Positions 11,904-50,641 of a DNA stretch of 64,000 bases are shown here, piece by piece. The DNA comes from Escherichia coli (GTDB lineage Bacteria > Pseudomonadota > Gammaproteobacteria > Enterobacterales > Enterobacteriaceae): NCBI RefSeq assembly GCF_041248615.1, contig NZ_CP158426.1; one strand, 5' to 3'. The notes below the pieces were generated by a model. The model searched no databases, was not told where the DNA came from, and worked only from the letters and a program-made list of their open reading frames with translations. A program made the position numbers and the translations under genes. The stretch's first letter is position 1, and every line of letters starts with the position of its first letter.

Positions 11904-11961
11904 ATGTCTGCACCTGCACTGCCTGATGTCAGAACAGTATTTTGATGAATTGCCAGGGTTA

Positions 11962-12138
11962 CAATGGCACAAATACGGCACAGGAGGAAAATGTGGTGTA
12001 ATTGAATGTGAGGTAACTACTTCACCTTTCAGCCGGGCATCTCACCGAGCACGCGAGCAAAATCGATGCGATTATAAGTCGCAATGGCACAAATACGGCA
12101 CAAGAGGAGAACGTGGTTTACTTAAATGTGAGGTAACT
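11962..12138. repeat. Two 57-bp direct repeats (~89% identical) with 120-bp period next to thrW
   Basis: Copy 1 at 11962-12018 and copy 2 at 12082-12138, both beginning caatggcacaaatacggcaca and ending aatgtgaggtaact. Confidence 0.7.
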
Positions 12139-12150
12139 TATTGATTTAAA

Positions 12151-12226
12151 TGGTGCCGATAATAGGAGTCGAACCTACGACCTTCGCATTACGAATGCGC
12201 TGCTCTACCAACTGAGCTATATCGGC
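12151..12226 (-). tRNA. thrW: tRNA-Thr (anticodon CGT)
   Basis: 76-nt reverse-strand sequence GCCGATATAGCTCAGTTGGTAGAGCAGCGCATTCGTAATGCGAAGGTCGTAGGTTCGACTCCTATTATCGGCACCA with cloverleaf features. Confidence 0.9.
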
Positions 12227-44426: not shown

Positions 44427-45632
44427 TTATACAAAATCTTCATACAGCGTTATTAACTGTGTGATAAAACCCTCTAACGTTAATAATCCCTCCCTGATTT
44501 CCTCCGGATATTTTTTATGAAGAGGGGAAGGTACAACCAAGGTGACACCTTCAGCTCTCATTTCGTTAAATTGAGCAACTGAGACACCCTCTTGTAAGGT
44601 AAACAAATATATTTTGTTGATTTTATTTGCTTCATTGAGTGCCTGACGCCACCGATCCTTACATGTTGTTTTTACAGCAAGCATACGGAGTTTTTCTCTT
44701 GGAAAGTGATCATCATGGTAAGCTGCCGCTGATGGAAAAAGAAAATCGGGTTTCTTTTTTCCTTCAGTAATACATTGAGTAGCAAAATGATGCAGTCCAT
44801 GCTCAATAAAAATTTGCTCAAGATGTAGCTCCAGTGATTTCCCGGCTCGAGATTTTCTTCGATTACTAACAGAGTTAGCCATAGCTATAAAATCATCTAC
44901 AGAACCAAACCCTTGACGGATGATGTCCAGTACGTGAATTTCTTCAACCATTAGAAAGAGATCATATTCAATACGGCGGCGTTCTAAAAGTTGGTCATCT
45001 GGACTGGTTACGCCTGTTGGGTAATAACCCGCAGCATATTGAATAATCTCTAAGCCAGAAGGAAAGCTATGTTTCCAGCTTTCCGGAATAACATATTCCT
45101 TTTGAGAGATTTTTGGCCTTGATGCGAGTACACCAAGTATTTCACTGGCAGGCCCAAACATTAAAGTTCCAGGAATGATCTCCCCAATAGCTGATTCCAG
45201 TACATCCTCTTCTTCTGGGCTAACACAAACCCATACATCAACACTTTTGCTGTCTCTCCCTGGCTCATGTTCAAACGCAAGCACAGACAAAGCACCTGTA
45301 TTTTCCGGATCCTGTAGGGGACTGCCAGCCCCCCACCGAGTGATGCGTTTTTCATTTCTTGTTTGCCCGAAATACTTATTATTGTAGTAAATAGCGCGAA
45401 CCTCACTGTCTACACATTCATGAGAGGAATAAGTTGCGCGCAATAAAACCGAAGGATTTTTTTCTGACGTATGATCTATAGATGGGAAAAGTTCAGCGAC
45501 GATACCAGAAGGGATATATACCCCCACTTGATGCCCTCCTGTTGCACCAGTGTCGTTTGCTGAAAGACGTTTAATATAGAGATAGTTGTTACCACCGACC
45601 TTATCAAGCAGCCAATCTTGTAATCCTGACAT
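44427..45632 (-). CDS. Type IIE restriction endonuclease, EcoRII family
   Basis: 401 aa; N-terminus YIKRLSANDTGATGGHQVG and catalytic domain match recalled R.EcoRII closely. Confidence 0.9.
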   Translation of the reverse strand: MSGLQDWLLDKVGGNNYLYIKRLSANDTGATGGHQVGVYIPSGIVAELFPSIDHTSEKNPSVLLRATYSSHECVDSEVRAIYYNNKYFGQTRNEKRITRWGAGSPLQDPENTGALSVLAFEHEPGRDSKSVDVWVCVSPEEEDVLESAIGEIIPGTLMFGPASEILGVLASRPKISQKEYVIPESWKHSFPSGLEIIQYAAGYYPTGVTSPDDQLLERRRIEYDLFLMVEEIHVLDIIRQGFGSVDDFIAMANSVSNRRKSRAGKSLELHLEQIFIEHGLHHFATQCITEGKKKPDFLFPSAAAYHDDHFPREKLRMLAVKTTCKDRWRQALNEANKINKIYLFTLQEGVSVAQFNEMRAEGVTLVVPSPLHKKYPEEIREGLLTLEGFITQLITLYEDFV

Positions 45633-46597: not shown

Positions 46598-46613
46598 CGG
46601 CACGCTTATTGCA
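46598..46613 (+). promoter_or_regulatory. Sigma-54 promoter upstream of the unknown 311-aa gene and transferase gene
   Basis: CGGCAC-GCTTA-TTGCA with correct GG-N10-GC spacing; lies inside the ORF-track N-terminus, implying the real start is at 46648. Confidence 0.5.
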
Positions 46614-46647
46614 CATTCCGCAAAGTAATAAAGACTGGAAGCCACCT

Positions 46648-47580
46648 ATGAGTTTTATTGAATGTTACGAACCGGAATACGTGCGCAATTTTATGACGCA
46701 ATATCCCGATTCGCCTTTGTACATCCGCAAGGTGTGGAAAAACGAGATTCGCCAGAGCCTGATGCTGACAGAGCCAGAAAGCTGCGAAGCGGTGCTCAAC
46801 GATGCCAGGGCCTTTGATTTACAGCTCACCTACCGCCCGGCGGAAGATAATGCCGCAGAACTCTCCGCGCGCGATGCGATAGTAAACCAGGTCATTTTGA
46901 GCACCCTTACGCTCCCCGATTTACCCCCGGAGCTTTCACTGTACGCCGTCGGGATTTTGCTCTCCCGCGCCAGCAAAATGCCGGGCAGAGACGGAGATAT
47001 TCTTGCCCGCTTGACGACGCTGCCACAGGCGCTGGCCGATCATGCACAAAAAGGCACGCTACAGGCACAGTTCGCCCAGCTGCCGCCCGTGCCACAGCTG
47101 GCGCGCCAGTTGATGACGCTGCTCGGCAGTTGTGCGTTTGACTGGTCGATTCTGCCGGAAAGCCCGCGCAAAACTTCGCTGCCGTTGCAGATGCCTTTGC
47201 TGGCGCTACATGACGCCAACAGCGAAGCCCTGTTACAACAGCAGCTTCAGGCACAGTGGCAAACCACCTGGCAACAGCATTTTGCCACCGCGCCCTGGAT
47301 GATGCGTAACTGGCTGATTTACCGCGTTTACCATGAGGTGATTGGGCAGGCAGACGGAGCAGATTATTGCCCGCTGGTGTGCGATTTTTATCTTATCCGC
47401 ACGTTAATCAGTTTATGGACGCTGGATGGTTCTCCGCTGCGACAGGAGGATATTTTCGCCCTCTTTGCCATGTTTGAACGCTGGCGAGCCAGTGAAAATG
47501 CTGTGCTGATTCGCCAACAAATTCAGGCTGAACGTTCCGCAGATCCCCTGCTTTATGCGTTTTCACTGCTGTCTTGCTAA
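46648..47580 (+). CDS. Hypothetical protein (311 aa), no recognisable domain; start at MSFIECYEPE
   Basis: ORF with RBS ggaag 7 nt upstream; sits between flgN homologue and the large transferase gene. Confidence 0.5.
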   Translation: MSFIECYEPEYVRNFMTQYPDSPLYIRKVWKNEIRQSLMLTEPESCEAVLNDARAFDLQLTYRPAEDNAAELSARDAIVNQVILSTLTLPDLPPELSLYAVGILLSRASKMPGRDGDILARLTTLPQALADHAQKGTLQAQFAQLPPVPQLARQLMTLLGSCAFDWSILPESPRKTSLPLQMPLLALHDANSEALLQQQLQAQWQTTWQQHFATAPWMMRNWLIYRVYHEVIGQADGADYCPLVCDFYLIRTLISLWTLDGSPLRQEDIFALFAMFERWRASENAVLIRQQIQAERSADPLLYAFSLLSC

Positions 47581-47626: not shown

Positions 47627-50092
47627 ATGCAAACCCTCATCAAAACACTCGCCACCCAGCGCGAAAAACCGTTCGTCAGCGTCGTCACGCCCACATGGAA
47701 CCGTAGCGCATTCCTGCCGTACCTGCTCTATATGTACCGCTATCAGGACTACCCGGCAGACCGCCGCGAACTGGTCATCCTCGACGACTCGCCGCAAAGC
47801 CATCAGCACATCATCGACCGTTTGACCGATGGCACGCCGGAAGCCTTTAACATCCGCTACATCCATCATCAGGAAAGACTGCCGCTGGGCAAAAAACGCA
47901 ACATGCTCAATGAACTGGCAGTGGGGGAATATATCCTCTGCATGGATGACGACGACTACTACCCGGCAGATAAAATCTCTTACACCATCGCCATAATGCA
48001 AAAACACCGGGCGCTCATCTCCGGTTCCGACCAGATCCCCATCTGGTACAGCCACATCAATCGCATCTTCCAAAGCCGCAGCTTTGGCTCACATAACATC
48101 CTCAACGGCACCTTTTGCTATCACCGTAACTACCTGAAAAAGCACCGTTACGACGATGATTGTAATTTAGGCGAAGAGAAAAGTTTCACCAACAATTTCA
48201 GCGTTAACCCGCTACAACTGCCCGGCGAGCGCACGATTTTGTGTATCTCGCATAGCCACAACACCTTTGATAAAGACTTTATTCTCGGGGCCAGCACGCC
48301 AGTAAACGCGGCGCTTACGGATATCGTCCGCGATCCGCTGCTCCGCAACGCCTATCTGAGTCTGCATAACGCCACTCATCACCAGGCGATCAACCATCAG
48401 GCGATCGATCAGGTCGTACTGATCAATCTGGATAAACGCCCGGATCGCTTACAACAGATCCGTGAAGAACTGGCATTGCTGCATATTCCACCTGAGAAGA
48501 TCACCCGCCTTGCCGCCAGTGAAGATCAAAACGGCCAACGGGGACGACGCCAGTCGCACTTGCAGGCGCTGCGCCTGGCGCAACAGCACGGCTGGCAAAA
48601 CTACCTGCTGCTGGAAGATGACGCGGTTATTCTCAAGCAGGAAAAACATATTCAGGTACTGAACACGCTGCTGGCGAGCCTGGCGAAAATTCCCTGGCAG
48701 GTGATGATCCTTGGCGGCGAAATTTCGCAGGGAACGATGCTAAAAAGTTTGCCGGGGCTGGTGCACGCGCGGGACTGCCGCAAGGTGTGCGCTTATCTGG
48801 TGAACAGCCGCTACTACCCGCAACTGGCGCAGCAGATGAGCAACGATGAGCACTCGCTGGAAGAGTGCTGGCAGCCGCTGCTACACGCCGACAAATGGCT
48901 GGCCTGTTACCCGAGCCTTTGTTACCAGCGACCGGGCTTTAGTGATATCGAGAAAAAAACGACTGACAACATTGCTCACTATTTCAATAAGTTACCCGTA
49001 GCCACCAAGCCATCTACATTACCCATCGCCGATACCATCGGCTTTTTTATGGAAACCTCATTCCACTACGCGCTCTACCGCCCAATCATCACCGCTCTGC
49101 AGGCGCAGGGGCAGAGCTGTACGCTGGTGATCAATGACCGCGTATTTAAACCATTTCTGGATGAAATGCTGGCGACGCTAAAAAGCATTGACGATCCGCA
49201 GCTCAAAGGTATGCGCTTATCTGAAATGCAGGCGCACGGTCAGCGGGTAAAATGCCTGGTCAGCCCCTATCACACGCCCGCGCTCAGTGGCCTGGCAGCG
49301 GTGAACGTCCGCGCCATGTACGGCTTAGCCAAAGAGGCGTGGAACCACGCCGACTGGAATCGTTTTTACCAACGCATTTTGTGTTATAGCCACTACAGCC
49401 AGCAGACACTGGCGCATTTCGGTAGCGCAAAAGTGGTCGGCAATCCACGTTTCGACGCCTGGCATAACGGCACGTTTGCCCGCACTCTGCCGGAAAATAT
49501 TCAACCCGATTCCCGTAAACCTACGGTGCTCTACGCCCCCACGTTTGGCGCATTAAGCTCCCTGCCCCACTGGGCAGAAAAATTGGGGCGCTTAAGCGGT
49601 GATGTGAACCTGATTTGCAAACTGCACCACGGCACCTGCTCGCGCCCGGAAGAAGCTGCATCGCTGGCACTGGCGCGCAGGCATTTAAAACAGCGCACCG
49701 ACTCCGCCCGCCACACGCTGGCGCTACTGGCAAAGGCCGATTACGTGCTGACCGATAACAGCGGCTTTATTTTCGATGCTATCCACGTTGATAAGCGGGT
49801 GATCCTGCTCGACTTTCCGGGCATGAGTGAATTACTCGAAGGCGAGAAAAGCTACTCCACGCCGGAGAGCGCCGATCAGCAAATCCGCGAAATATTGCCG
49901 GTGGCTCATGATATGGCAGAGTTGCGTTACTTGTTGTCAGAGGCGTTTGACTGGGGGGCGGTGCAGGCGCGGCTTACGAAGATTCGTCATCACTATTGCG
50001 ATGCGTTTATGGATGGCAAGGCGGGAGAACGGGCGGCGATGGTGATTGTGGAGGCGCTGGCGGACAAGGAATCGTCAGGGATATGTCGATAA
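47627..50092 (+). CDS. Three-domain transferase: GT2 glycosyltransferase + GT25-like domain + TagF-like CDP-glycerol glycerophosphotransferase domain
   Basis: N-terminal DxD-containing GT2 (CMDDDDYY), central GT25-like (VVLINLDKRPDRL), C-terminal TagF/TagB-type motif (LYAPTFG). Confidence 0.75.
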   Translation: MQTLIKTLATQREKPFVSVVTPTWNRSAFLPYLLYMYRYQDYPADRRELVILDDSPQSHQHIIDRLTDGTPEAFNIRYIHHQERLPLGKKRNMLNELAVGEYILCMDDDDYYPADKISYTIAIMQKHRALISGSDQIPIWYSHINRIFQSRSFGSHNILNGTFCYHRNYLKKHRYDDDCNLGEEKSFTNNFSVNPLQLPGERTILCISHSHNTFDKDFILGASTPVNAALTDIVRDPLLRNAYLSLHNATHHQAINHQAIDQVVLINLDKRPDRLQQIREELALLHIPPEKITRLAASEDQNGQRGRRQSHLQALRLAQQHGWQNYLLLEDDAVILKQEKHIQVLNTLLASLAKIPWQVMILGGEISQGTMLKSLPGLVHARDCRKVCAYLVNSRYYPQLAQQMSNDEHSLEECWQPLLHADKWLACYPSLCYQRPGFSDIEKKTTDNIAHYFNKLPVATKPSTLPIADTIGFFMETSFHYALYRPIITALQAQGQSCTLVINDRVFKPFLDEMLATLKSIDDPQLKGMRLSEMQAHGQRVKCLVSPYHTPALSGLAAVNVRAMYGLAKEAWNHADWNRFYQRILCYSHYSQQTLAHFGSAKVVGNPRFDAWHNGTFARTLPENIQPDSRKPTVLYAPTFGALSSLPHWAEKLGRLSGDVNLICKLHHGTCSRPEEAASLALARRHLKQRTDSARHTLALLAKADYVLTDNSGFIFDAIHVDKRVILLDFPGMSELLEGEKSYSTPESADQQIREILPVAHDMAELRYLLSEAFDWGAVQARLTKIRHHYCDAFMDGKAGERAAMVIVEALADKESSGICR

Positions 50093-50106
50093 AATTCGAT
50101 TTTTTA

Positions 50107-50144
50107 AACATGTCGTTGGAATACGTTTATGCCATCGACATGTT
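50107..50144. terminator. Hairpin between convergent transferase gene and tagD-like gene
   Basis: aacatgtcg ... cgacatgtt 9-bp stem. Confidence 0.45.
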
Positions 50145-50236
50145 TTAGGGATATGTCGAAAAAACGCGATTATTTAAACATATTTAACATAGCCAAACGG
50201 CAGACGGCATCATCTTCTCTCACTACGGGAATTAAA

Positions 50237-50641
50237 TCAGTAGGTGGCTGATTTACCCCTAATCACCTCAATAATCCCCGTCGTCGATACCGACGGCGTA
50301 CGGGGAAAATAGACCACCTCACAGACACACGAGAAATCGTCAAACTTCCCTGCCCAGTCATCACCCATCACTAAAATATCCGCACCGTACCCCCGCAAAT
50401 ACTCCGCTTTCTGCTCCAGCGATTCCTCCAGAAATACGCCATCCACGCACGCCAGCCCGGCGATAATCGCCATGCGGTCATCCTGATGGTAAACCGGTGC
50501 CCTGCCCTTTTTGGCGATGTTCAGGGCGTCGGACGATACGCCGACCAGCAGCCGCTCGCCCAGCTTGCGGGCGCGTTGTAAAAGGCGCAGATGACCGACG
50601 TGAAACACATCGAAGGTGCCGAAGGTGATGACCGTTTTCAT
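50237..50641 (-). CDS. Glycerol-3-phosphate cytidylyltransferase (TagD-like), makes CDP-glycerol
   Basis: FGTFDVFHVGHLRLL (HxGH) and RTPSVSTTGI motifs; start at MKTVITFG two nt after lfiJ stop. Confidence 0.8.
   Translation of the reverse strand: MKTVITFGTFDVFHVGHLRLLQRARKLGERLLVGVSSDALNIAKKGRAPVYHQDDRMAIIAGLACVDGVFLEESLEQKAEYLRGYGADILVMGDDWAGKFDDFSCVCEVVYFPRTPSVSTTGIIEVIRGKSATY

Follow-up and report, generated by a model that had tools for sequence, protein, structure and literature searches.

A tandem repeat beside a flagellar glycosyltransferase gene as a probable relic of a SoFic control region in Escherichia coli

The Flag-2 locus of the Escherichia coli genome considered here (NCBI RefSeq assembly GCF_041248615.1, contig NZ_CP158426.1) contains an imperfect direct repeat that runs across the stop codon of an 821-aa glycosyltransferase gene and into the intergenic region shared with a convergent cytidylyltransferase gene. 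What is this repeat, and how did it come to lie there? The original prediction, made from the letters of a 64,000-nucleotide stretch (hereafter the window), offered either a duplication footprint from insertion of the modification genes or a paired regulatory or terminator structure. A footprint and a regulatory origin are both borne out, but neither the insertion-duplication nor the paired terminator proved right. The repeat is very probably the decayed 5′ control region of a cassette that formerly sat in variable region 1 (VR1), a cargo hotspot of Flag-2. This cassette would have carried sofic, a fic gene whose product, SoFic, is an AMPylase that acts in anti-phage defence and whose C-terminal domain is a winged helix-turn-helix (the Fic-wHTH architecture).

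The repeat pair and the 70-nt array upstream of sofic

A repeat search of the window returned a direct repeat at 50077-50111 and 50147-50181, with 31/35 identical nucleotides (89%) and a start-to-start distance of 70 nt. The predicted 37-bp repeat across the transferase stop and the convergent intergenic region is therefore real, and its sequences and coordinates agree with ours. The glycosyltransferase open reading frame (ORF; 47627-50092, + strand) ends with a TAA at 50090-50092, inside the first copy as had been claimed. In 5000 dinucleotide-preserving shuffles of the local 121 nt the best pair of 35-mers matched at 24/35 positions, and in 40 shuffles of the entire window at 25/35. The repeat is thus non-random, since no shuffle approached 31/35.

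The same units are found intact elsewhere, directly upstream of sofic. Across 38 sofic loci of the Enterobacterales, from about 20 genera, 110 boxes served to define an array. The spacing between boxes is 70 nt in 65/72 intervals and otherwise 69 or 71 nt. A locus has 1-11 boxes (typically 3), the final one ending exactly at the ATG. The 31-nt box has the consensus ATATGTCGATAAAA-N5-TTTTTTAAACAT, and both copies in the window fit it. A degenerate pattern for the box matched both copies with 0 mismatches and nothing else in the 64 kb window, with matches in 0/100 shuffles. Box 1 (ATATGTCGATAAAATTCGATTTTTTAAACAT, 50081-50111, + strand) aligns with box 1 of the loci from Pseudocitrobacter (P. faecalis, L012) and E. 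coli 4FM (L007), and holds a ATGTCGAT half-site together with the glycosyltransferase stop codon. Box 2 (ATATGTCGAAAAAACGCGATTATTTAAACAT, 50151-50181, + strand) likewise aligns with the second box of L012 (ACATGTCGAAAAAACGCATTTTTTTAAACAT) and with that of L007. The 70-nt spacing in the window falls within the array period (69-71 nt), and the segment between the boxes (50112-50150, + strand) carries the inverted half-site ATCGACA(T/C). Here the half-site is ATCGACAT at 50134-50141, the same position at which it is conserved in the unit consensus.

The units of an array are not equivalent. The proximal unit has the consensus GTGACATGTttATggcATCGACATAttATGgc.ATATGTCGATaAAAacGG.TTTTtTAAACAT, and it is the only one in which a promoter scan found GTGACA-N17-TAT(T/G)AT, a near-consensus sigma-70 promoter with 10/12 matches. 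Half-sites occupy the stretch between its -35 and -10 elements and also cover the predicted transcription start. Units farther upstream have lost the -35 and -10 hexamers and retained ATCGACA and the box. The inter-box segment of the window is of this distal, non-promoter type, as the consensus of the second unit also keeps ATCGACA and not the -35/-10 elements.

Copy number varies among E. coli strains (3, about 7 and about 9 boxes). Moreover, the registers found by blast differ between strains (5, 7 or 8), so that the array behaves like a variable-number tandem repeat. Long arrays of 9-11 boxes occur in E. coli O104:H4 (L006, 8510-9106) and in a Citrobacter sp. (L013). These show a 140-bp higher-order period with a 96% match, a pattern that indicates recent amplification.

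The array and sofic occur together, with nothing else in common, in unrelated contexts: in Flag-2, in a tRNA-Leu island with an integrase and a MobH relaxase (O104:H4), and in Pantoea, Proteus, Atlantibacter and others. An array travelling with sofic alone is as expected of a self-contained cis/trans module. A 70-nt operator/promoter array is not mentioned in PMC12249575, PMC6993521, bioRxiv 10.64898/2026.07.09.737422 or PMC9755527. The conserved array would add a variant of new architecture to Fic-wHTH autoregulation.

Deletions separating the window from an intact cassette

Comparison by blastn with the P. faecalis locus resolved the window into three collinear blocks. The first (window 49900-50184) is an ungapped match of 285 nt at 85% identity that leads from the glycosyltransferase straight into the array. 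At a first junction (50184/50185) 1011 bp of L012 (2934-3944) are absent, as judged from the block boundaries and the junction sequences. The match then resumes for 36 nt (50185-50220, + strand; L012 3945-3980), a remnant of the codons for SoFic residues 315-327, which belong to the winged-helix domain, with 89-97% identity to L012 and to 7128-7164 of L007. At a second junction (50221/50222) the alignments lack a further 75 bp or so (L012 3981-4055; residues 328-351). The third block of 179 nt (50222-50400; L012 4056-4234) covers the last 7 sofic codons, their TAG and the cytidylyltransferase. Within it, the second remnant (50222-50243, + strand, TAG at 50241-50243) is collinear with L012 4056-4077 and L007 7239-7259, and overlaps the 3′ end of the convergent, TagD-like cytidylyltransferase gene (50237-50641, - strand; Pfam CTP_transf_like and annotation). 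Alignment to 4FM gave an identical block order. A model of three deletions, drawn from that alignment, was revised to two because the junction of glycosyltransferase and array is collinear in P. faecalis.

Lost with the 1011 bp were inter-box 2, whose promoter reads GTGACA-N17-TATGAT, then box 3 and the first 314 codons of sofic; the promoter called in the intact L012 locus falls within the deleted stretch. Together the two deletions removed 338/358 codons. The window accordingly has no promoter-proximal GTGACA-N17-TAT(T/G)AT unit, and no equivalent promoter was called there. Nor do its boxes abut the ATG of an intact sofic, the gene being deleted save for the fragments at 50185-50243. The glycosyltransferase stop is TAA in L012 and TCA in the window. 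This difference lets the ORF run 5 codons on, reading GICR and ending at the TAA that GTCGATAA of box 1 contains, so that the last codons of the gene lie within the box; the homologous ORF of P. faecalis ends 5 codons sooner. On these comparisons, loss of sofic is the parsimonious direction of change, because pieces of a coding sequence, in their right order, can hardly be older than the gene.

The protein encoded by the intact cassettes matches Pfam Fic_N, Fic and SoFic-like_C (the C-terminal winged helix) and the PADLOC SoFic model (E = 4e-121), is almost identical to E. coli Sofic as crystallised (PDB 9vjc, E = 7.5e-212) and is homologous to Shewanella oneidensis SoFic (3eqx). PDB matches other than 9vjc and the SoFic entries were weak (E ~1e-7 to 1e-12). 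The L012 translation contains HPFPDGNGR and an N-terminal SxxxEN, the catalytic and the inhibitory motif, respectively, as defined for the Fic classes.

Four alleles occupy the site in E. coli. In about 575 genomes the glycosyltransferase ends ...GCGCTGGGGTAA and is followed by a pair of repetitive extragenic palindromic (REP) sequences, or bacterial interspersed mosaic element (BIME), with the cytidylyltransferase also present and the repeat absent. The window-type relic, in which the glycosyltransferase leads into two boxes and sofic fragments, was found in 107/5426 genomes at 95-100% identity. A third allele has other hypothetical genes past a shared left boundary, ...ctttatgaatt. The intact allele is present in 6 genomes (e.g. 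4FM, EC1515), in which the order is glycosyltransferase, array, fic and cytidylyltransferase, with the repeat just upstream of a full fic. In addition, fic is found at the same site in Escherichia sp. E1V33 (L010) and two Pseudocitrobacter genomes. The C-terminal codons of the cytidylyltransferase in the window (…GKSATY*) are those of the cassette-type allele, not of the REP-type (…GLL*).

Candidate operators and the protein that may bind them

Sequence comparison and analogy suggest that SoFic itself most likely uses the boxes and the ATCGACAT/ATGTCGAT half-sites as its operators. SoFic is favoured as the binder because four independent lines converge on it. Firstly, in the 300-bp promoter DNA of S. 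oneidensis, SoFic dimers specifically bind the start-proximal 100 bp (bioRxiv 10.64898/2026.07.09.737422). This fragment ends ...ACATGTCGATTGAATCGACAT...TTATGTCGATAAAAGAAGGTTTTTTTAAAC followed by the ATG, i.e. the same palindrome and box. Secondly, the motif follows the protein. SoFic homologues in other phyla (51-58% identity) lack the 70-nt array and have 3-4 TGTCGA/TCGACA sites around a TTGAC-type -35 element, and in more remote clades different motifs are repeated at this upstream position. Thirdly, the predicted recognition helix starts with (K/Q/R)RQTAS in 14/14 proteins of the TGTCGA clade, and differs in each of the other motif clades. Finally, there is a precedent in CccR, a Fic-wHTH protein that acts on inverted repeats close to the -35 and -10 elements to repress its own promoter (PMC9755527).

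In the distant SoFic-like clades (L056/L058, L064/L073, L065-L067, L068/L074/L076, L080 and L083), the 200 nt upstream of the fic homologue hold a motif particular to each clade, for example aatacctttatt/aataaaggtatt, aacgagggc, ttacc(c/t)at or ttgacag/ctgtcaa, and the predicted recognition helix differs with the clade. Such pairs of motif and helix could serve as a natural specificity table for the winged-helix family.

In the intact state, tandem 70-nt units, each an inter-box segment with ATCGACAT plus a 31-nt box, precede sofic, the last box lying at the ATG. A SoFic dimer would bind the half-sites by its C-terminal winged helix and repress its own toxic gene, with the extra upstream units as auxiliary operators. 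E. coli Sofic (EcSofic) is toxic on expression and gives anti-phage defence (PMC12249575), and this toxicity gives a reason for tight repression. In the lineage of the window, the two deletions spared boxes 1 and 2 with one inter-box segment, along with two short pieces from the 3′ end of sofic. In NRZ14408, an E. coli whose Flag-2 locus is 100% identical to the window, blastn found 1 place matching the array, and the window has the two boxes only. Since the promoter unit and the gene are gone and NRZ14408 has no second array place, it is most likely that the two boxes are orphan operators whose present role goes no further than to supply a stop codon and 3′ flank.

The closest known system is fragment F1 of S. 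oneidensis sofic (mloA). It concerns the same protein family, has a ATGTCGAT-N3-ATCGACAT palindrome and a box ATGTCGATAAAA-N5-TTTTTTTAAAC directly upstream of the ATG, and is bound by SoFic in a dimer-dependent, sequence-specific manner; the binding motif is not defined in that work (bioRxiv 10.64898/2026.07.09.737422). It differs in having two boxes about 79 nt apart and an intact gene, whereas the Enterobacterales have a strict 70-nt array of 1-11 boxes and the window has lost both gene and promoter unit. The CccR operator of Yersinia pseudotuberculosis (PMC9755527) is likewise the target of a Fic-wHTH toxin dimer that represses its own promoter, but it is unrelated in sequence (AGATAATCAT-N26-ATGATAATCT) and is a single palindrome rather than a tandem array. 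CccR is likened here by description, no named CccR entry being found among the PDB matches of the fic protein. The deleted gene encoded essentially EcSofic, which is toxic and acts as a dimer (PDB 9vjc). However, PMC12249575 describes a downstream 47-aa antitoxin, AS1, and nothing on upstream repeats, and in the Flag-2 cassette a 7-nt overlap of sofic with the convergent cytidylyltransferase leaves no space for AS1. Tandem iteron and centromere arrays, such as sopC of the F plasmid, also consist of head-to-tail units of fixed length, each with an inverted-repeat site for a dimeric HTH protein. Unlike these, the sofic array has no linked partition or replication genes and is coupled to a toxin-like gene, at its promoter and start codon.

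Several points weigh against this account. The transcription start over which half-sites lie is a prediction. The correlation of helix and motif is imperfect: one homologue (L062) has a KRQTAA helix and no obvious TGTCGA sites, and another (L059) has a KRETAA helix yet TCGACA sites. SoFic binding has been resolved to a 100-bp fragment in S. oneidensis, not to a box or half-site (bioRxiv 10.64898/2026.07.09.737422). In the six intact E. coli cassettes a REP pair and a leader separate the array from the glycosyltransferase, and an intact junction of the L012 type was not found within E. coli itself. As regards inertness, the relic is as strongly conserved across its 107 genomes as the flanking genes are. 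Lastly, inter-box segments fold better than shuffles (mean z ~ -2.8), and a structural role for them as RNA or single-stranded DNA is conceivable.

Rival readings, the VR1 setting and wider meaning

The last point bears on the strongest rival, namely that the convergent genes recruited the repeat and its hairpin as a terminator acting in both directions, or as a 3′ structure that stabilises their mRNA, in functional replacement of the REP/BIME pair. The repeat search did return an inverted repeat (50106-50123 and 50128-50145) with 18-nt arms that are 89% complementary, the 3′ arm lying in the inter-box segment. The predicted hairpin between the copies is thus present, but lies only partly between them, as its 5′ arm shares 6 nt with the end of copy 1. 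A 60-nt segment folds at -18 kcal/mol (z ~ -3.5 against mononucleotide shuffles) and a wider one of 181 nt has z = -2.0. Moreover, the common allele has a REP pair at this position, so some 3′ structure may be useful there, and the relic is kept in 107 genomes. REP/BIME units do share the intergenic position past the glycosyltransferase stop, but they are GC-rich, unrelated in sequence and absent from the window allele. Against co-option, a simple scan of 49900-50400 on either strand found 0 terminator-like sites. The hairpin stem is rich in A and T, and the T-run, partly inside the stem, has just 4 nt. Across 69 homologous segments the hairpin pairs hold in 9-93%, several in fewer than 50%; variants break the pairs with no compensatory changes, while the 8-mers themselves are conserved. 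Conserved 8-mers without conserved pairing favour protein-binding half-sites, and the pairing stems from inverted operator half-sites present in every unit of every array, in any context. Taken together, these data make a co-opted terminator or 3′ structure distinctly unlikely, and the paired terminator first proposed does not stand.

Related candidates were rejected in turn. A conserved hairpin was ruled out by the pair-by-pair counts, and an intrinsic (Rho-independent) terminator by the lack of a GC-rich stem-loop followed by a T-run. A structured RNA element was set aside as there was neither compensatory pairing nor a match to a known family; searches of Rfam at permissive thresholds with the window region and two fic-upstream arrays gave only chance-level miRNA and sRNA matches. 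A sigma-28 flagellar promoter was suggested by eye by the resemblance of GTCGATAA to the GCCGATAA -10 element, but the -35 region misfits and the motif comes from a non-flagellar cassette.

A duplication footprint, whether a target-site duplication or a recombination scar, from insertion of flagellin-modification genes into Flag-2 is very improbable. The repeat does lie at the edge of a variable cargo region, and the difference between alleles begins at the last glycosyltransferase codons. However, the same boxes at the same 70-nt period, in 1-11 copies, precede sofic in dozens of unrelated contexts. The copies flank no insert, just a regular inter-box segment, and the roughly 575 REP-type genomes have both modification genes without the repeat. 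In the window the repeat records a defence gene that was lost rather than transferase genes that were gained.

Equally hard to credit is a small dispersed mobile repeat (like a miniature inverted-repeat transposable element, RSA or BoxC) inserted 3′ of the glycosyltransferase. Up to 7-9 blastn 'places' per genome in other E. coli strains would fit such an element, but these are shifted registers in one tandem array upstream of one fic; the 9-box array of O104:H4, for example, gives 7 places. There are no terminal inverted repeats, target-site duplications or copies outside sofic 5′ regions, and no Rfam match. A chance match in AT-rich intergenic DNA (local GC is 31%) has a negligible probability, given that 0/5000 composition-matched shuffles reached 25/35 and that both copies are kept in related loci, including those of other genera, contrary to the lack of conservation that chance similarity had been predicted to entail.

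The decayed control region of a sofic cassette remains the preferred reading. The gene order in the window is flgM, flgN, a 323-aa hypothetical gene and the GT2 glycosyltransferase (ORF list, Pfam Glycos_transf_2 and RefSeq annotation), with the cytidylyltransferase, fliJ, fliI, fliH etc. on the opposite strand. VR1, between lfiJ and lfgN, is a cargo hotspot with GT2 and TagD-type genes (De Maayer et al., PMC6993521); that account of flag-2 cargo does not mention Fic. Cargo 3′ of the glycosyltransferase starts after a common leader of about 100 bp ending ...gctgtctttatg(a/g)att (L007 5900-5999; L008 2760-2845; L009 2740-2830), past which strains hold sofic or unrelated hypothetical genes. The leader end looks like a defined boundary for cassette exchange. 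Four alternative VR1 cargo proteins gave no PADLOC match. In E1V33, a partial second copy of the cytidylyltransferase (L010 2490-2802; residues ~30-135, 80-88% identity) lies upstream of the sofic array, which suggests that the cassette moved via recombination within the cytidylyltransferase gene. In E. coli W (L005 1730-2150), the sequence right after the REP pair 3′ of the glycosyltransferase (TGTATTGATTCACTTGAAGTACGAAAAAAA...) resembles the left end of a Mu-type phage. The annotation places a transposase-domain gene close by, and Flag-2 is interrupted at this point.

Other genes in and around the locus deserve mention. A DNA cytosine methyltransferase (to about 44339, + strand) and a type II restriction endonuclease (44427-45632, - strand; coordinates converted from the L001 annotation) adjoin flgM within Flag-2, and similar cargo is noted in PMC6993521. 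With this restriction-modification pair and the lost SoFic cassette, the region looks like a small defence island. The 323-aa protein (46609-47580, + strand) upstream of the glycosyltransferase has no Pfam match; its 4FM counterpart is annotated as a lysine-N-methylase and is possibly a FliB-like flagellin methylase. Elsewhere in the window, a strong direct repeat of about 57 nt at a distance of 120 nt (11958-12137; caatggcacaaatacggcaca(g/a)gagga...aatgtgaggtaact) adjoins tRNA-Thr(CGU) (12151-12226, - strand) and may be a duplicated att site or a scar of island integration.

The relic itself is ordinary. A bolder idea, which we regard as rather doubtful, is that the 70-nt array is a copy-number-variable operator platform, in which the number of boxes (1-11) would set both the amount of toxic SoFic dimer kept on DNA and the tightness with which the gene is repressed, and so tune the threshold for triggering abortive infection. 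Orphan arrays might then persist as decoy sites, or as homology anchors for recapture of sofic by the Flag-2 hotspot.

For the Flag-2 locus, the repeat is uninformative on the arrival of the flagellin-modification genes, and a false lead is thereby removed. VR1 instead behaves like a small defence island, in which a SoFic abortive-infection gene was probably gained and then lost, with a restriction-modification pair nearby. For the SoFic family, the ATGTCGAT half-sites and 31-nt box in strict 70-nt tandem units provide a candidate operator, making the autoregulation of a widespread defence toxin directly testable.

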